A stretch of DNA of 64,000 nucleotides. It comes from Parcubacteria group bacterium. GTDB taxonomy: Bacteria > Patescibacteriota > Patescibacteriia > UBA1558 > GWA2-36-10. The position numbers were made by a program, and so were the translations under genes. The DNA lies in NCBI GenBank assembly GCA_003104935.1, contig PQAE01000012.1, positions 4,988 through 68,987 on the forward strand, given 5' to 3'. Below, piece by piece: positions 4,658 to 44,550 of the stretch. Position 1 is the first letter of the stretch, and the number at the start of each line of letters is the position of its first letter. The notes below the pieces were generated by a model, which saw nothing but the letters and a program-made list of their open reading frames with translations, was not told the DNA's origin and did no database searches.

Positions 4658-5800
4658 ATGAAGGATTTTAAAAAATGTCAAAAAATAAGGCAAAAAACCA
4701 TGAATTCCATATTAGATAAAGTAATAAGCTCCAAACACCTGTCAAGTCTGGCGGATTTTGACCCGCATCAGACGCTGGCTAGTATTTTGCAGGCGTTATC
4801 AGAACGGGAGCAGGAAATCATCAAGCTTCGCCATGGTCTGGCTAACTACGAAAAAAAGACTTTGGAAGATATCGGCAAAAAGTACAATATTACCAGAGAA
4901 AGAGTACGCCAAATTGAAAATAGCTCGCTAAAAAAAATTACGAAAAATTTTAATCAGAGCTACCTCAAAGAAATTGAATTACTGGCGAATTCTACTTTAG
5001 CGGAACACGGTGGCATGATGTCAGAAGATAACCTAACCGGCGAGCTTTTGGTTATGCCCGGCGAAAGTCAGGAGAACAAAGCGGCCATCCGTTTTATACT
5101 GAATGAATTACTAAGCCATCGCTTCTATCTGGTTAAGGAAGGCAAAGACTATTACAGTTTTTGGAAAACTCCGGAGTCTTCGCTGGACTATTTCCATAAT
5201 ATTATTGATAATATCGTTTCCTTGGTGGACAATCACGGACAGGCGCTACCGGCTGATAACCTCATAGATCAAATAAAGCAGGCCGAGTTTTTTACCACAG
5301 ACGAAGCACTGACGGAAAAAATGATTTTAAACTTCTTGCAAATCACTAAAAAATTAGGAGCTAATCCCTACAATGAGTGGGGTTTGGTAAGCTGGCCGGA
5401 TATCACCCCGCGCCGCATGAACGATAAAATATACCTGGTGCTCAAAAAGGAAAATAAACCTCTACACTTTACGGAGATTGCCGAAAAAATTAATCAGATG
5501 TCATTTGACGAACGCCAAGCTTTCCCGGCCACTATTCATAACGAGCTGATCCTAGATGACAAGTATGTCCTGGTAGGCCGTGGCATCTACGCCCTCAAAG
5601 ATTGGGGTTACAAGCCGGGAGTAGTCAGTGATGTGATATATGACATTCTCAAGGATGCCGGCCGACCACTTTCCAAAAAAGAAATCATAGAGGAAGTAAT
5701 GAAGAAACGCATGATCAAGCAGACCACCATCACTTTGGCTCTGATGAATAGAGATAAATTTAGCCGCGACGAAAAAGGAAGATATTCAATAAAACAGTAA
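4658..5800 (+). CDS. sigma-70 region-4 domain protein with C-terminal HARE-HTH (RNAP delta-like) winged-helix domains
   Basis: N-terminal EQEIIKLRHGL...TLEDIGKKYNITRERVRQIE is a sigma region 4 HTH. The C-terminal repeats resemble HARE-HTH. The likely true start is an internal ATG near 4700. Confidence 0.55.
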   Translation: MKDFKKCQKIRQKTMNSILDKVISSKHLSSLADFDPHQTLASILQALSEREQEIIKLRHGLANYEKKTLEDIGKKYNITRERVRQIENSSLKKITKNFNQSYLKEIELLANSTLAEHGGMMSEDNLTGELLVMPGESQENKAAIRFILNELLSHRFYLVKEGKDYYSFWKTPESSLDYFHNIIDNIVSLVDNHGQALPADNLIDQIKQAEFFTTDEALTEKMILNFLQITKKLGANPYNEWGLVSWPDITPRRMNDKIYLVLKKENKPLHFTEIAEKINQMSFDERQAFPATIHNELILDDKYVLVGRGIYALKDWGYKPGVVSDVIYDILKDAGRPLSKKEIIEEVMKKRMIKQTTITLALMNRDKFSRDEKGRYSIKQ

Positions 5801-5903: not shown

Positions 5904-7409
5904 ATGGAATTTGCCATCGATCTCTCGGTTTTCAGCAATTTTAGCCAACTCGGTCCTCTGAGCATGGTTTGGATTGTTTTTATTAACGGCGGCTGGATCG
6001 TTTTTGTTTGGTTTTTTATCAACGCCTGTTACCTGGTCTGGCTGTTCCGTAAACAAAATCAATGGTTTGCCACTAACGAATATATGATCCTGGCCGTTGA
6101 TATTCCCAAAGATACCGAACAGACGCCGAAGGCGGTGGAGCAATTATTTGCCACTATTTCCGGGGCACACACGCCACTGAGTTACAAAGAGTTATGGTGG
6201 CAAGGCAAGTTTCAGCTGGCTTTTCAGTTTGAGATTATTAGCATTGACGGTTATATCCAATTTTTGATTCGCACACCGAGACAATGGCGAGATCTGGTGG
6301 AAAGTGCCATTTATTCACAATATCCCGACGCGGAGATAACCGAGGTAGAGGATTATGTTAATACAGTGCCCGACAAATATCCCAATGATACCCATAATAT
6401 CTGGGGCACTGAGGTAATCTTGGCCCGCAACGATGTTTTCCCGATAAAAACCTACAAGGAGTTTGAGGACAGTGTTTCCGGTGAGTTTAAGGACCCACTG
6501 GCTTCCTTATTGGAAACCATGAGTAAAATTAAAAAGGGCGAGCAGGTTTGGATTCAGATTATTGTAAAGCCGACAGGTTTTGAGTGGACTGCCAAGAGTT
6601 CCAAGATGGCCTATAAAATTGCGGGCAAGAAAGTACCGGAGAAAAAAAACGGCTGGTCTAGTTGGCTTTCTCCATTCACCGGATTGATATTTTTGACGAC
6701 CGGAGAGGAAATGTTTTTTCAAACCGGAGGAGGTAGTAAACCCAGTGTTCAAAAAGAACCGATGCCGAGCATGATGTTACATCTAACTCCGGGTGAACGA
6801 TTGGGCGTAGAAGCCATAGAACGAAAAGCCAGTAAGATCGGTTTTGAATGTAAAATAAGACTTATCTATATATCGCCTCTGGAGCTTTTTCAGTCTTCGC
6901 GCGTTGTCTCTTCAGTTTTCGGATCGTTGAAACAATTTAATACTCTTGACCTCAATGCTTTTAAACCTGACCCGCGGACGAAAACGCAGATTATGTATTT
7001 TTTTATCAAATCGCGGATCGCTGCGCGTCGTCGCTACATCATGGAAGGGTATAAAAAACGTAGCGGCATGATGGGTCATAGCCCTTTTATATTAAATACG
7101 GAGGAGCTGGCTACGCTTTGGCACTTCCCAGCCAGGGATATTAAGGCGCCGCTTCTGCAAAAAACCGAGTCTAAGAAATCAGAACCGCCTTCGAGTTTGC
7201 CCATTGAATCTATGGAGAAAACCAGACAAACTGACTATAGTGAATTGCGCCGACAATTGCGTGAAAGCACTAAACCCGATCAACCCGCCTTTGATCTGAT
7301 GGACAAGCATTATGAACACAGATTTGCCAAGAAAAACGCATTGTCGACGCAACGGCCCGCCTCAACTACCCACAAAGGCGAACCGCCGGCTAATTTACCT
7401 TTAGGCTAA
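5904..7409 (+). CDS. membrane protein (2 N-terminal TM helices plus a large soluble domain), partner of the downstream T4CP-like ATPase
   Basis: Two hydrophobic helices at the N-terminus. The stop overlaps the start of the next gene (TAATATG), indicating translational coupling. Confidence 0.6.
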   Translation: MEFAIDLSVFSNFSQLGPLSMVWIVFINGGWIVFVWFFINACYLVWLFRKQNQWFATNEYMILAVDIPKDTEQTPKAVEQLFATISGAHTPLSYKELWWQGKFQLAFQFEIISIDGYIQFLIRTPRQWRDLVESAIYSQYPDAEITEVEDYVNTVPDKYPNDTHNIWGTEVILARNDVFPIKTYKEFEDSVSGEFKDPLASLLETMSKIKKGEQVWIQIIVKPTGFEWTAKSSKMAYKIAGKKVPEKKNGWSSWLSPFTGLIFLTTGEEMFFQTGGGSKPSVQKEPMPSMMLHLTPGERLGVEAIERKASKIGFECKIRLIYISPLELFQSSRVVSSVFGSLKQFNTLDLNAFKPDPRTKTQIMYFFIKSRIAARRRYIMEGYKKRSGMMGHSPFILNTEELATLWHFPARDIKAPLLQKTESKKSEPPSSLPIESMEKTRQTDYSELRRQLRESTKPDQPAFDLMDKHYEHRFAKKNALSTQRPASTTHKGEPPANLPLG

Positions 7410-35207: not shown

Positions 35208-35220
35208 AATTAAATAAAAG

Positions 35221-35277
35221 AAAAGAGCCCCGTAACGTTGTGTCAGCATTGTGATGTCAGACGGCGTTACGGGGCTC
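35221..35277 (-). terminator. intrinsic terminator (13-bp perfect stem GAGCCCCGUAACG) ending the minus-strand RNA
   Basis: On the minus strand the hairpin is followed by UUUUCUUUU. There is no T-run on the plus strand. Confidence 0.6.
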
Positions 35278-35591
35278 CCAGGGTTGCTTTGGTGGACAAC
35301 GAGTTCTGACTGTGGTCAGCAGTTTTCCGGCATAGGCTCCGGCTAACCTGACAACAGCAACTGTGTCCCCAAGGTGGTAAGGTCTATAGCAACCCCACGA
35401 GGATTGCTGGGGGAGGATTCCCGCGGGTGTGGCCGACTTTAGTTCGGTCCCGACTTATCCAGTTTTTCTCCCTGGCGGATAGCTCACTACTGCAGGACTT
35501 GCCCCACATTAAAGCAGTATGCGAGCGTCAATTATCTACACCTAGACAGGGCTAGCACTCTATCTATTGCATCGATCCCGCTCGAGCCCCC
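35225..35591 (-). ncRNA. unclassified GC-rich structured RNA (about 370 nt) downstream of xer. The 5' end starts GGGGGCUCGAG.
   Basis: ORF-free with about 55% GC. The 5' GGGGCUC pairs with GAGCCCC near the 3' end. Internal hairpins are present and a terminator follows. Canonical RNase P P4 and tmRNA T-arm sequences were not found. Confidence 0.4.
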
Positions 35592-35698
35592 AGCAATATT
35601 ACGAAGAACACTTACGATTGAGTATGTGAGCACACATTAAATAATCTGTCAAGACCACCCGGCAGATATTTTAAAATTTATGCTAATATTAGCTAAAA

Positions 35699-41289: not shown

Positions 41290-42822
41290 CTAAGTGCTCG
41301 CCTTCGGCCGCATAGTTGGGAATAAAATAACTTCTTTGATATTTTCCACATCGCCCAGCATCATTACCAGCCGATCAATGCCGATGCCTACTCCGGCGGT
41401 AGGCGGCATGCCGTGTTTCAATGCCTCCACAAAGTCATCGTCGGCACCCTGTGCCTCGTCATCGCCGGCCGCCCGCAATCTCTTTTGCTCCTCAAAACGT
41501 TCGGCCTGATCCAGAGGATCATTGAGCTCAGAAAAAGCGTTACAAAGCTCTGCGGTCTTGACCACTAATTGAAATCTTTCTACGTAGTTTGGCCGATCCG
41601 GAATTTTTTTGGCTAAGGGCGACAACTCAATCGGATGGTTAATAATAAAGGTCGGTTGAATTATTTTTGACCGAACAAATTTTTTGTACAGTTCGTCCAG
41701 CAGTTTGCCCCGGCCCCAGCTTTTATCCACCGGCAAATTAGCTTTCATGGCGATAGCGGCCAAGTCATTATCCGAGGCCTGATCAATATTAATTTTTAAA
41801 GCTTTATCCAGCTCGGTCTTAAAATCCAGACGCGGATAGGGCGTTTTAAAATTTAAGGTATCATTACCGCACTTTATGTTGGTCTTGTGAAACAGTCCTT
41901 TGACCATACTTTCAAGATATTTTTCCACCAGCTCCATATAACCCCGGTAATCCTGATACGCCTCATAGGCCTCCAACTGGGTAAACTCGGGGTTGTGCTG
42001 ATGATCGATGCCCTCATTTCTAAAACAGCGGGCGATTTCATATACTTTGTCATAACCACCGATGATTAATCTCTTCAGATAAAGCTCCGGGGCAACCCGT
42101 AAGTACAGATCCATATCCAGGGCATTATGGTGCGTCACAAATGGTTTGGCCGTAGCACCGGTAGCGATAACTTGTAATACTGGCGTGTCTACATCCATAT
42201 AACCGCGCTCATCAAAAAAATTGCGCGTTAATTTTATAATCTTAGAACGCAGATCAAAAACTGTTTTTCTGTCCGGATTCACAATCAGATCCAAATATCT
42301 CTTGCGAAAGCGCAGATCCGGATCCTTCAGACCATAATATTCATCGGGAATCGGCAACAAGGCCTTGGTTAATAATCGAAAATTACTAACCAGCAAGGTT
42401 GATTCATCTGTCTTGGTCGTAAAAGCCGTGCCGCTAAACTCCACAAAGTCTCCTTGGTCTATAAAGTTCTTAAACTGCTCATACTCCTCGGCTCCTATAC
42501 TGTCCTGGCGCAAAAAGGCCTGCAGTCTTCCGCTACCGTCGGCAAAGTGCAAAAAACAAGATCCGCCCTGCAGACGCAAGCTAAATATACGGCCGGCCAA
42601 AACTACTTTTTTCTGGGACTTTAATAATTTACTAAAATCCTGCAGAAAGTCCGCTACCCGATAATTTCGGGCAGTCTGAGCCGGATAGGCGCTAAGCCCT
42701 CTCTTCCTGATTTCCTGCAACTTATCCAACCTTTGTTTATACTCGTCGTTGATGTTTATTTTTTCTCTCATAGAAATGATAAATATATACATAATAATAC
42801 CGAATTTTGAGCTAAAAAGCAA
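41290..42822 (-). CDS. lysS: lysine--tRNA ligase (class II); true start probably at an internal ATG near 42771
   Basis: Anticodon-binding OB and class II motifs. C-terminal GMPPTAG.GIGIDRL. Confidence 0.85.
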   Translation of the reverse strand: MLFSSKFGIIMYIFIISMREKININDEYKQRLDKLQEIRKRGLSAYPAQTARNYRVADFLQDFSKLLKSQKKVVLAGRIFSLRLQGGSCFLHFADGSGRLQAFLRQDSIGAEEYEQFKNFIDQGDFVEFSGTAFTTKTDESTLLVSNFRLLTKALLPIPDEYYGLKDPDLRFRKRYLDLIVNPDRKTVFDLRSKIIKLTRNFFDERGYMDVDTPVLQVIATGATAKPFVTHHNALDMDLYLRVAPELYLKRLIIGGYDKVYEIARCFRNEGIDHQHNPEFTQLEAYEAYQDYRGYMELVEKYLESMVKGLFHKTNIKCGNDTLNFKTPYPRLDFKTELDKALKINIDQASDNDLAAIAMKANLPVDKSWGRGKLLDELYKKFVRSKIIQPTFIINHPIELSPLAKKIPDRPNYVERFQLVVKTAELCNAFSELNDPLDQAERFEEQKRLRAAGDDEAQGADDDFVEALKHGMPPTAGVGIGIDRLVMMLGDVENIKEVILFPTMRPKAST

Positions 42823-42847
42823 CGAATATTACAATGTTTTCTGACTA

Positions 42848-42876
42848 TTGACAATATTATAATTATATGCTATAAT
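42848..42876 (+). promoter_or_regulatory. consensus sigma70 promoter (TTGACA, 17-nt spacer, TATAAT)
   Basis: Perfect -35 and -10 hexamers with optimal spacing, upstream of the 2-TM miniprotein. Confidence 0.6.
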
Positions 42877-42922
42877 GAGAGAATAATCAGTGTTCCTAAC
42901 ACCCTATCGTTTGGAGATAGTC

Positions 42923-43102
42923 ATGTTCCTCTGTACTTTTCTTGGCACGCTTCTTGGTGCCGTTACGGGCCTTGAGGTTTACAACGGAACTAACAACTCC
43001 GGTTTGGCATGTGCAAGCTCGATGGCCATCTTCGCCATAGGAATGCTCGTGGGAAGAGTAGTAGTGGCCATCGAGGATTTGCGCAGGCAAATCAAAGGAT
43101 AA
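42923..43102 (+). CDS. small 2-TM membrane protein (59 aa from the ATG with GGAGA RBS; the track ORF starts at GTG 42890)
   Basis: Two hydrophobic helices and a basic C-terminal tail. GC-rich compared with neighbours. Confidence 0.45.
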   Translation: MFLCTFLGTLLGAVTGLEVYNGTNNSGLACASSMAIFAIGMLVGRVVVAIEDLRRQIKG

Positions 43103-43114
43103 GCGCATCATCAA

Positions 43115-43163
43115 AAGAGACTCATTACTTCAATACCAATGAAGACAAATGAGTCTCTTTTCA
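43115..43163 (+). terminator. intrinsic terminator (11-bp stem AAGAGACTCAT...ATGAGTCTCTT followed by TTTTCAGTTT)
   Basis: Perfect 11-bp inverted repeat with a 23-nt loop and a T-run. Confidence 0.55.
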
Positions 43164-43167
43164 GTTT

Positions 43168-43200
43168 ACCCCGTTAGACGCCAGTGGCGTCTAACGGGGT
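43168..43200. promoter_or_regulatory. perfect 15-bp inverted repeat with 3-bp spacer (ACCCCGTTAGACGCC agt GGCGTCTAACGGGGT) abutting the -35 element. Operator-like.
   Basis: The right arm ends at the first T of TTGACA. No U-tract follows it directly. Confidence 0.45.
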
Positions 43201-43228
43201 TGACAAATATGCTTTTTTTTGATATTTT
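43200..43228 (+). promoter_or_regulatory. sigma70-like promoter (TTGACA, 17-nt spacer, TATTTT)
   Basis: Consensus -35 hexamer, 17-nt spacer, AT-rich -10. Sits upstream of the AAGGA RBS and the ATG at 43273. Confidence 0.45.
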
Positions 43229-43272
43229 GAAGCGTAAATCATGTTCGCTCCACTAGCTGAAAGGATAAAGCC

Positions 43273-43530
43273 ATGCAAGGCCTTCTGTTTCTGGAAATCG
43301 ACAAGGGCAAGTTCGGCGCTCATGGTTATGCCGACCACACCCAGATCTGGCACCTGGTGCAGGACGGACATGCCCTGCACATCAAGAAACACTTCACGGG
43401 CAAACCTGGTGAGGAACAGCTCAAGGTCACAGTCACTGAGTGTGACGAGTCCTGCCCGCAACTGGTAAATATCCCCGAGCATGTCGTCACTAAGGCCCTG
43501 CCCAAGATTCAGGAAATCATCAAGCGTTGA
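43273..43530 (+). CDS. His-rich hypothetical protein (85 aa) with a CxxxC pair
   Basis: AAGGA RBS 7 nt upstream. GC is about 55%. Seven His residues, several spaced two to three residues apart, and the Cys pair CDESC. Confidence 0.45.
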   Translation: MQGLLFLEIDKGKFGAHGYADHTQIWHLVQDGHALHIKKHFTGKPGEEQLKVTVTECDESCPQLVNIPEHVVTKALPKIQEIIKR

Positions 43531-43598
43531 TGAACTGATTCTATGTCCAGAGGGGCATACGCCCTCGTCAGCACGAGCATATTTTCCCAGGAGGCCTA

Positions 43599-43700
43599 AT
43601 GACCAGGTACATCATCTTTATCGGTGCGATCGTCGTGGCCGCAATCATCATCACTGCCCGTGTACTCATGGGCAAAGAGAATATCGGCGACTACATGTGA
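43599..43700 (+). CDS. 33-aa single-TM peptide (MTRYIIFIGAIVVAAIIITARVLMGKENIGDYM), below the ORF-track cutoff
   Basis: Strong AGGAGG RBS 4 nt upstream. Hydrophobic helix followed by a charged tail. Co-transcribed with the 85-aa gene. Confidence 0.4.
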   Translation: MTRYIIFIGAIVVAAIIITARVLMGKENIGDYM

Positions 43701-43715
43701 GTCGCTGCCACAAAC

Positions 43716-43745
43716 AGGGACAGCCACATGGCTGTCCCTTTCAAA
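43716..43745 (+). terminator. intrinsic terminator (GGGACAGCC acat GGCTGTCCC followed by TTTCAAATTT)
   Basis: 9-bp GC stem, tetraloop and T-rich tail after the peptide gene. Confidence 0.5.
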
Positions 43746-43746
43746 T

Positions 43747-44550
43747 TTATTCAATTTTTGGCAAGGGCTGTTTCCGGTACTTCCACAGATATTTCAGAAA
43801 ACTAAGAATATGATTACGGGCGGTTTTTTTAAACAAGGTTTTCCAAAGATTATCCGAAGCCGACTCTCGCCGGTGCAGATGGATGATCTCGGCCTCGCCC
43901 ACGTAAGCCACCATATAGCCGGCGGCCCAAAACCTCCGGGACCAATCTAGGTCCTCCATATACATGAAATACCTTTCGTCTAACAGGCCGACTTTTTCTA
44001 AGGTTGACCGCCGGACAATCAGACAGGCGCCAAATAAAGCCGGCACATAAGCATTGACACTATGGTCAATATCCGTCATTAAATAATTATTTAACCAGGC
44101 TTGTCCGGCCCGACTCTGCCCTACTCCGGTGCGACGGTACAGCGGTAGATGCCAGTCCGGAAAACGGGTACAGGAATACTGCACACTCTTATCGGCATTG
44201 ATCAGTCGCGGACCGGCCAACCCCACTTCCGGATGCGCTTCCATATATTCATACAATTTATTCAGTCCGTCCGACAATATAGCTAGATCCGGATTACATA
44301 TCAAAATATACTTGCCCTGGCTGGCCTTAACGCCCAGATTATTGCCGTAGGCAAAACCGCCGTTTTTATTGCTCTGAATAAATTTCACCCCGGGAAATTT
44401 TGGAACCAATTCAGCGATGCCATCATAGGAGCCGTTATCCACCACAATAATTTCATTGTGGTAAGGCAAACCTAGCTCCAGCAGATTAACCAATAATTCC
44501 TTAACTAAACGCCGGTTAAAATAATTTAGTATTACTATTGATAAATCCAT
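43747..44550 (-). CDS. family 2 glycosyltransferase
   Basis: IVILNYFN...VVDNGSYDG GT-A N-terminus with DxD region. Confidence 0.7.
   Translation of the reverse strand: MDLSIVILNYFNRRLVKELLVNLLELGLPYHNEIIVVDNGSYDGIAELVPKFPGVKFIQSNKNGGFAYGNNLGVKASQGKYILICNPDLAILSDGLNKLYEYMEAHPEVGLAGPRLINADKSVQYSCTRFPDWHLPLYRRTGVGQSRAGQAWLNNYLMTDIDHSVNAYVPALFGACLIVRRSTLEKVGLLDERYFMYMEDLDWSRRFWAAGYMVAYVGEAEIIHLHRRESASDNLWKTLFKKTARNHILSFLKYLWKYRKQPLPKIE

Follow-up and report, generated by a model that had tools for sequence, protein, structure and literature searches.

What is a compact block of some 0.92 kb, its two units placed on the strand opposite to every neighbouring gene, doing between lysS and the glycan cluster of a Parcubacteria group bacterium? 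The block, referred to here as the islet, lies in a 64,000-nucleotide stretch of contig PQAE01000012.1 (assembly GCA_003104935.1, positions 4,988 to 68,987 of the forward strand), which we call the window and in whose coordinates all positions are given unless a related locus is named. Its neighbours—lysS, ham1, serS and glycosyltransferase genes—make up a housekeeping and glycan-synthesis block. A preliminary description of the same DNA had listed a promoter (P1), a 59-amino-acid (aa) open reading frame (ORF), a hairpin, a palindrome, a second promoter (P2), 85-aa and 33-aa ORFs and a closing hairpin; all of them were recovered where it had placed them. Taken jointly, the evidence points, with a probability of roughly 60%, to a foreign accessory insert at an insertion hot spot, composed of two units that resemble phage morons, in which the 85-aa protein would hold a zinc site and be linked to the membrane and the palindrome would serve as an insulator.

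The islet is organized as two mini-operons (units 1 and 2), each with its own predicted promoter and hairpin terminator. Promoter and terminator calls are sequence predictions throughout, and a strict terminator scan passed over the two main hairpins, which fell outside the loop lengths and T-run positions that it accepts. The features are as follows:

42794..42822, minus strand: ancestral lysS promoter (-35 TTGCTT at 42822..42817, 17-nt spacer, -10 TATTAT at 42799..42794), the left edge of the native sequence as placed by a junction alignment with 13 relatives
42823..43746: inserted islet, ~0.92 kb, with the lysS promoter at one edge and the stop codon of a GT2 glycosyltransferase gene (43747-43749) at the other
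42848..42876, plus strand: promoter P1, TTGACA-17-TATAAT with a TG extension, 12/12 consensus positions
42923..43102, plus strand: ORF of 59 aa, preceded by GGAG (6 nt upstream) and predicted to contain two hydrophobic segments
43113..43161: predicted hairpin terminator of unit 1, 14-bp perfect outer stem plus inner 5-bp stem, -21.4 kcal/mol, z -6.2
43168..43200: perfect 33-bp palindrome ACCCCGTTAGACGCC-AGT-GGCGTCTAACGGGGT, arms 15-3-15 or 16-1-16, -32.4 kcal/mol, z -7.9
43200..43228, plus strand: promoter P2, TTGACA-17-TATTTT with a TG extension, 10/12 consensus positions
43273..43530, plus strand: 85-aa protein, locus tag C3F02_04650, of a rare uncharacterised family
43589..43594, plus strand: AGGAGG Shine-Dalgarno sequence, 4 nt before the ATG of the 33-aa ORF
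43599..43700, plus strand: 33-aa ORF with a single hydrophobic helix (residues ~4-20), called by one gene caller
43716..43739: closing 10-bp G+C-rich hairpin, a predicted bidirectional terminator for unit 2 and the convergent GT2 gene, -20.2 kcal/mol (plus strand) and -20.9 kcal/mol (minus strand)

A foreign insertion at a recurrent landing site

The origin of the islet was addressed by comparing 80 related loci, fetched with LysS, in which the window proteins were placed by tblastn. The order Wzy-GT2b-GT2a-lysS is retained in ~35 relatives, named as Komeilibacteria, Parcubacteria or Patescibacteria metagenome-assembled genomes (MAGs), with LysS identities of 54-74%. In ~20 of these, the GT2a stop codon and the lysS start codon are just 79-128 bp apart, leaving a short AT-rich stretch (GC 0.19-0.33) in which the lysS promoter, TTGATT-17-TATTAT, is located. 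Neither homologues of the 85-aa, 59-aa and 33-aa ORFs (tblastn) nor islet DNA (blastn) could be detected in any of the 80 loci. The window and 13 relatives share the junction motif ATAATAC..AATTTTG..CTAAAAA(T/G)CAA, directly after which their sequences split. Since the native lysS promoter is kept and divergence begins right behind it, the insert spans ~42823 to 43746. The islet is thus a horizontally acquired insertion, demonstrated by locus comparison; this agrees with the foreign composition noted in the preliminary description, which had proposed a check for absence from sister genomes.

Ten relatives carry other, unrelated inserts (364-1875 bp) at exactly the same point, among them:

L016: three membrane proteins of 80, 70 and 143 aa, encoded on the opposite strand and equipped with TTGACA promoters and terminators of their own
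L026 and L049: a 67-aa two-helix protein on the opposite strand, with its own TTGACA promoter and terminator
L025 (4126-6001), L027 (1066-2605), L028 (732-2286) and L030 (4518-6001): a 430-560-aa secreted protein with a C-terminal tail (..NYPNPFNPTTTI..) like that of type IX secretion system (T9SS) substrates
L023: a NUDIX-like ORF, judged by eye
L043: a 146-aa ORF

The gap between the GT2a stop codon and the lysS -35 hexamer (~10 nt, dispensable) is thus a place where accessory genes, for the most part envelope-related, have landed repeatedly, and the islet of the window is one such arrival. The inserts of L027, L028 and L030 have a GC content of ~0.50 in hosts of 0.36-0.39; no homology was found between the small membrane ORFs of the window and those that its relatives carry at this spot. 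A separate observation concerns the T9SS-like tails themselves, as a sorting signal of this Bacteroidota style is unexpected in Patescibacteria.

Base composition agrees with a foreign source, and most clearly at the level of codon positions. The preliminary description had put the GC content at about 50-55%, a range that holds for the islet ORFs (50-54%) and not for the islet as a whole, which stands at 47.9% against 43.4% for the window; this value falls in the top 4.5% among equal-length sliding windows, and ~50.5% is also reached in two other regions of the window. A sharper sign of foreignness is GC at the third codon position (GC3), which amounts to 0.69 in the 85-aa gene and 0.74 in the 33-aa ORF, versus 0.38-0.55 across all 38 long genes of the window. 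Moreover, the same DNA was assembled separately from two sequencing runs (100% identity over 20 kb and over 1.8 kb), so that an assembly chimera is ruled out.

The insertion has also given lysS a new neighbour. P1 now stands back-to-back with the lysS promoter, with 25 nt between it and the lysS -35 hexamer (42817-42853), and the promoter scan additionally returned a minus-strand TTGTCA-17-TAATAT that overlaps the P1 -35 hexamer. This arrangement may have consequences for how the essential lysS gene is expressed.

The 85-aa protein belongs to a rare and conserved family

The product of the 85-aa ORF is identical to the database entry 'MAG: hypothetical protein C3F02_04650 [Parcubacteria group bacterium]'. 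A codon model trained on the long genes of the window, in which real genes score 0.26±0.09 and wrong frames -0.52±0.24 per codon, assigned it +0.18 per codon, inside the range of real genes; the ORF is a real protein gene. Consistent with the preliminary description, it matches no characterised family: none of the three islet ORFs has a credible counterpart in Pfam, NCBIfam, PHROGs or PADLOC (the last returning one chance-level match), and PDB sequences matched neither the protein nor its family profile. A word-indexed search retrieved only the protein itself. Among 1.84 billion representative proteins, phmmer run exhaustively yielded 14 matches—about 10 genuine, with 31-46% identity over the full length, and three of them repeat or zinc-finger noise—and a profile search widened the family to 16 clusters. 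With ~25 sequences the family is very rare, and every member with a named taxon comes from Parcubacteria or Patescibacteria, within the Candidate Phyla Radiation (CPR).

Family members occur as short forms of 79-88 aa and as long forms of ~160 aa with a helical C-terminal extension. Ratios of nonsynonymous to synonymous substitution rates (dN/dS) of 0.15-0.33 among the long forms indicate that the family is under purifying selection. The invariant residues are M1, G3, G12, G18, W26, G32, H36, C57 and C61; H36, C57 and C61 are found in 21/21 members, D58 and S60 in 20/21 and H22 in 16/21. The window protein has seven histidines (17, 22, 27, 33, 36, 40 and 70) and the motif C57-D-E-S-C61. Position 27 is a cysteine in 20/21 members and a histidine solely in the window protein, which also has the highest histidine content of the family (range 2.4%-8.2%). 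The high histidine content singled out by the preliminary description is hence a peculiarity of the window member and not a family trait. The conserved Cys/His residues make metal binding plausible; the role of a His-rich protein in metal homeostasis, one of the candidates of that description, gains no support.

AlphaFold2, supplied with the family alignment, returned a model with a predicted local distance difference test (pLDDT) score of 84, containing strands at residues 4-10, 19-30, 33-43 and 49-56 and a helix at 69-84; the long-form model adds three helices. In this secondary-structure register, residues 27 and 36 oppose each other across the β2-β3 hairpin; C57 comes after β4 and shares their face, with C61 in the loop that follows. 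The arrangement suggests a structural zinc site formed by position 27 (Cys or His), H36, C57 and C61, which would be of the Cys3His type in most members and Cys2His2 in the window protein. The weak, non-significant fold neighbours comprised cystatin-like scaffolds, Eag/SciW chaperones and SSB/PC4-like proteins. The PC4-like single-stranded DNA (ssDNA)-binding fold, which has the same topology and a 'PEQ.W'-like helix start, was ruled out by an hhalign probability of 0.5%.

As regards location, the 85-aa protein may act at the cytoplasmic face of the membrane, because the ORF of P0003 (at locus L094) continues into a C-terminal hydrophobic helix (with a Cys-rich ORF of 49 aa coming next), and P0023 perhaps carries an N-terminal one. 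The helix of P0003/L094 and the possible helix of P0023 are the sole support both for this membrane link and for the 33-aa peptide as an anchor. No homology was found between these fused hydrophobic segments and the membrane ORFs of the window.

Family genes travel as promoter-gene-terminator units

To place the islet in a broader context, the other loci of the 85-aa family were inspected. At each locus with enough flanking DNA, the family gene is a solitary unit amid housekeeping genes. A TTGAC(A)-type promoter lies just upstream of the family gene at no fewer than seven other loci, the exceptions being L012, where it sits within an operon, and L009. L003 and L005 share a cassette of ~750 bp that is ~88% identical, although their hosts differ in composition: the L003 gene has a GC content of 0.60 versus 0.37 for its host, and the L005 host stands at 0.54. 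The terminator GCACGACCTWCGGGTACGGC (the tail module) accompanies the family gene in L003/L004, L005, L102 and L104/L105, and it is common to five distinct cassette contexts overall. A head module (AAGAGGCGGNNCTTGCNGCCTCTTGAC; an AGAAGCA..AAAATTTT motif, hairpin and TTGAC) is common to L003, L005 and L103. At L103 (1-1588), where the family gene stands in tandem with a different gene, which encodes a lipoprotein of 155 aa, head module and tail terminator flank the latter too. The two cassettes have ~90 nt of head sequence in common (TAGAAGCA.AAAAGAAAAATTTT, hairpin and TTGAC promoter), and the lipoprotein gene is followed by the terminator known from the family gene elsewhere. This pattern of sharing indicates that the family moves between genomes as a promoter-gene-terminator unit.

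The surroundings of these cassettes include tRNA genes and palindromes. L005 lies between tRNA-Arg and tRNA-Val, L102 follows a tRNA gene and L003 follows tRNA fragments. The L003 cassette is bracketed by the palindromic sequence TGTTTAACCC-NNN-GGGTTAAACA (5770-5792 and 6511-6533), the second copy having an inverted loop and direct outer flanks, and the L104 cassette by copies of AAGTTAGGACAyyGGrTGTCC (443-466 and 1188-1217). This bracketing has the appearance of a hairpin target that was either inserted into or duplicated. Searches of IMG/VR viral contigs and GenBank phages turned up no family member, and those for the head and tail modules in viral contigs were likewise negative; with PHROGs also giving no match, a phage origin was rejected. 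A metagenome scan for further family loci added one, L094.

Individual loci showed further features. At L005 (5700-5900), extra tandem copies of the head motif follow tRNA-Arg. The long-form gene of L003 (P0013, 6001-6414) appears, relative to L005, to be frameshifted after residue ~74 and to have lost an internal segment, which probably makes it a decaying pseudogene in an otherwise conserved cassette. At L013 (~1870-1900), the hrcA promoter is overlapped by a textbook CIRCE element (TTAGCACTC-N9-GAGTGCTAA); 6 nt separate this element from the -35 hexamer of the family gene, which is divergent and which HrcA could therefore also gate. Finally, L102 (2830-2866) and L006 (1105-1141) have a near-identical leader of ~30 nt, AAAATyTGTTCTTwAAGGGAGGmCAAT, before the ATG, despite which the L102 (long-form) and L006 (79-aa, short-form) proteins are about as diverged as any pair in the family.

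The palindrome, the small ORFs and the weighing of alternatives

The 33-bp palindrome is the longest perfect G+C-containing inverted repeat of the window, and its last base is the first T of the P2 -35 hexamer. With a G+C-rich stem of 15-16 bp and a loop of 1-3 nt, it has the stem-loop form of an intrinsic terminator; the stem is followed by TGACAAATATGC, and the terminator scan gave no call. Comparable stems stand at the -35 hexamer in two further family lineages. L003, L005 and L103 have an 11-bp stem (CAAGAGGCGGY-loop-RCCGCCTCTTG) that finishes within the hexamer, and L006 has an A/T-rich stem that contains it; the sequences of all three lineages, the window included, are unrelated. Three substitutions in the L003/L005/L103 stem lead to G·U or U·G pairs on the sense strand, the second stem copy of L103 contains two mismatches, and the equivalent hairpins of L006 and L104 carry T-runs. 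The recurrent position, the unrelated sequences and the wobble-compatible changes together favour a structural hairpin over an operator. Judged from these sequence patterns, the palindrome is most likely, at moderate confidence, an RNA or ssDNA hairpin—a terminator or insulator that would shield unit 2 from P1 read-through—and possibly also the left end of the unit-2 cassette.

This conclusion departs from the operator-like arrangement put forward in the preliminary description, which had itself listed a second terminator among the outcomes that would count against it. A true operator, on which a dimeric host regulator or the 85-aa protein itself would bind double-stranded DNA and block or recruit RNA polymerase at the P2 -35 hexamer, has in its favour the perfect symmetry, the contact of the right arm with the hexamer, the inverted repeats likewise seen at -35 in the other two lineages, the CIRCE operator 6 nt from the family promoter at L013 and the non-significant resemblance of the model topology (four strands and a helix) to PC4/SSB-like nucleic-acid binders. 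However, perfect arms of 15-16 bp far exceed what a helix-turn-helix half-site needs, the palindrome centre near -51 (deduced from the coordinates) is not a classical activator position, and a stem whose sequence is not conserved between lineages and whose changes preserve G·U pairing would make little sense for recognition of double-stranded DNA. A motif search of the kind suggested in the preliminary description found the palindrome just once in the window, where the half-site has no further copy beyond chance, and no half-site in 105 fetched loci save the window's own copies, with single-arm 15-mer matches at chance level in viral contigs; no regulator gene, helix-turn-helix or other, occurs in the islet neighbourhood, and the 85-aa family matches no DNA-binding family, PC4 included. 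We therefore consider an operator unlikely. Still less likely is a recombination site or cassette boundary, that is, an ssDNA hairpin like attC or the ends of IS200/IS605 insertion sequences and their palindrome-associated transposable elements (PATE), which would turn the islet into a two-cassette array. Such a role would fit the long-form cassettes with their shared head module and tail terminator (flanking two different tandem genes in L103), the pairs of 23-25-nt palindromes around the L003 and L104 cassettes, and the tRNA genes or fragments adjoining L005, L102 and L003; moreover, the palindrome arms hold GTTAGAC and GTCTAAC, which we take to fit the degenerate attC core motifs. An attC site shows the order R''(RYYYAAC)...R'(GTTRRRY), its stem is imperfect and includes extrahelical bases, and an IntI/attI platform adjoins it, whereas here the motifs run in reverse order (GTTAGAC ... 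GTCTAAC), the stem is perfect without extrahelical bases, and neither an integron integrase (IntI) nor a Y1 transposase was found in the window next to the islet. IS200/IS605-PATE ends are ruled out by the unrelated left and right hairpins of unit 2 and the lack of a Y1 transposase near the islet, and a dif/Xer site by its repeat form, as known for dif sites. In addition, no shared sequence links the palindrome to the head module of other cassettes, and the islet has no flanking repeats. A broader version of the cassette idea would be an undescribed CPR system of short promoter-gene-terminator units with exchangeable head and tail modules, inserting at hairpins, beside tRNA genes and in promoter-proximal gaps without a recognisable recombinase; were this so, the palindrome-P2 junction would be one head module and the GT2-lysS gap one landing pad, although we see this as a long shot, distinctly improbable at present.

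A second group of alternatives turns on the two small ORFs. The unit 1 hairpin is preceded by an A-run and followed by UUUUCAGUUU, with a T-run on that side, so that it could act in both directions. The gene callers were split over unit 1: one took the 59-aa ORF and the other an antisense 71-aa ORF. No homologue of the 59-aa ORF exists among 5.8 billion clusters, and the 33-aa ORF, which has a codon-model score of ~0, has neither a homologue nor a family match. It is conceivable, if rather doubtful, that the 59-aa ORF and possibly the 33-aa ORF are untranslated, that unit 1 is a non-coding RNA of ~280 nt or a vestigial unit, and that the islet encodes the 85-aa protein only. Against this stand the consensus-perfect P1, the well-spaced GGAG, the clean two-helix hydropathy and the terminator directly after the stop codon, which make translation of the 59-aa ORF plausible; a host-trained codon model, besides, judges short foreign membrane ORFs poorly. 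For the 33-aa ORF, AGGAGG occurs 14 times in the window on both strands together, and its presence 4 nt before the ATG has a chance probability of ~0.2% (estimated from base composition). Its GC3 is near that of the 85-aa gene, and the single hydrophobic helix agrees with the single-TM peptide of the preliminary description; the ORF is probably real but particular to the lineage of the window. The preliminary description had further considered a membrane-peptide toxin/regulator pair. Such a module would consist of a type I-like toxin or holin-like effector (the 33-aa peptide) and of an antidote or chaperone (the 85-aa protein) that grips its transmembrane (TM) helix. A small single-helix peptide is indeed the format of Hok-, Fst- and TisB-type toxins, the perfect AGGAGG suits it, the family cassette is mobile and patchily distributed, and EagT6 and SciW, chaperones that bind the TM helices of secreted toxins, rank among the best (non-significant) structural neighbours of both models. 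Nevertheless, counterparts of the 33-aa ORF are lacking beside every other family member, as are those of the 59-aa ORF, so that there is no conserved pairing of peptide and protein, and the promoter scan detected no promoter-like site on the minus strand over or beside the 33-aa ORF, nor is there an antisense RNA signal. With PADLOC at chance level and the structural matches non-significant, we judge this module highly improbable.

The preferred reading, a foreign accessory insert with two moron-like units, a zinc-site protein linked to the membrane and an insulator palindrome, would run as follows. The islet was acquired horizontally into the GT2-lysS gap of a Komeilibacteria-like Parcubacteria genome. 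Unit 1 (P1, 59-aa ORF and hairpin) and unit 2 (P2, 85-aa and 33-aa ORFs and bidirectional terminator, with 7 nt left between it and the convergent GT2 stop codon) would be transcribed autonomously, and the palindrome hairpin would keep P1 read-through out of unit 2. The 85-aa domain, a β-meander plus helix held by structural zinc, would sit at the cytoplasmic face of the membrane, to which the 33-aa peptide could supply the anchor. Several observations count against parts of this scheme. As to the route of arrival, no flanking direct repeats of the islet were found, the 64-kb window contains no tRNA gene, and its sole recombinase gene, of XerC/D type, is 6 kb from the islet with housekeeping genes in between. 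The zinc site and the membrane association are read solely from conservation and a predicted model; fold searches returned nothing significant (Foldseek E 0.14-1.5, TM-score <=0.46), and the start codon of P0023, and with it the N-terminal helix, may be mis-called. The palindrome is not a canonical intrinsic terminator, as its T8 run begins 11 nt past the stem instead of placing the U-tract within 0-2 nt, and a second terminator is not obviously needed with that of unit 1 already 7 nt upstream; nor is the arrangement universal, since L104, L102, L094 and L009 have a terminator-type hairpin 10-85 nt upstream of the -35 hexamer, not abutting it. Finally, the 59-aa ORF scores -0.25 per codon, which is non-coding-like and slightly worse than the antisense ORF.

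A search for structured RNA in the window

A search of the window against Rfam gave no match at gathering score and, on the islet, just chance matches to hairpins of the microRNA or small RNA type. Away from the islet, the 490-bp gap between a PGA_cap-like gene and the XerC/D-type integrase gene (35208-35698) has a GC content of 0.485 and no ORF above 43 aa. It opens with a 13-bp perfect hairpin (GAGCCCCGTAACG...CGTTACGGGGCTC) and has an RNA fold z score of ~-4 on both strands. Rfam gave no match on this gap even at E <= 1, and it may represent an unrecognised structured RNA.

Comparison with known systems

CPR/Patescibacteria genomes are tiny and are usually called streamlined and poor in mobile DNA. 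Against this background, the locus described here is a precise hot spot, placed where a surface-glycan cluster ends and the lysS promoter begins, onto which related species have loaded different small membrane or secreted proteins. The 85-aa family could show how CPR episymbionts gain envelope-associated accessory functions; at present, the islet is a well-documented but functionally anonymous accessory element, and several known systems can be set beside it.

At the level of its components, the likenesses are partial. Like tandem or insulator intrinsic terminators, the palindrome is G+C-rich and stable, has a short loop and stands between unit 1 and P2; unlike intrinsic terminators, it has its U-run too far past the stem, an unusually long stem and a canonical terminator already upstream. 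The predicted 85-aa fold, a curved antiparallel four-stranded sheet with one helix, recalls the Eag/DUF1795 proteins (EagT6, SciW) as well as cystatin-like and PC4-like folds. Eag proteins bind TM helices, and the 85-aa domain is fused to or encoded beside hydrophobic helices; however, the structural matches are non-significant, there is no sequence similarity and, to our knowledge, none of these families has the conserved Cys/His cluster of the 85-aa family. The 33-aa ORF shares with type I toxins (Hok, Fst, TisB-like) a single hydrophobic helix, a strong ribosome-binding site and an accessory locus, but differs in being co-transcribed (as predicted) after another gene, in lacking conservation and in the missing antisense RNA signal.

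At the level of the whole locus, integron cassettes resemble the islet in their small same-orientation tandem ORFs and in the hairpins at unit boundaries, and the L103 modules likewise flank different genes. Unlike integron cassettes, the islet has no IntI/attI, its units have their own promoters, its 33-bp palindrome is perfect and short with the motifs in the wrong order, and family units insert at many unrelated chromosomal sites. A closer parallel is offered by the morons known from lambdoid phage genomics, which are autonomous promoter-gene-terminator units lodged between conserved genes. Like these, the islet units have their own σ70-type promoters and hairpin terminators and lie between genes that are adjacent in relatives, their composition and codon usage differ from the surroundings, and they encode small, dispensable, lineage-specific proteins. 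Unlike phage morons, the islet sits in a chromosomal housekeeping and glycan block with no phage genes nearby and has no match in IMG/VR, phages or PHROGs. The closest known kind is thus a moron-like accessory unit—here in a chromosomal setting and carrying a new, rare family of small CPR proteins.

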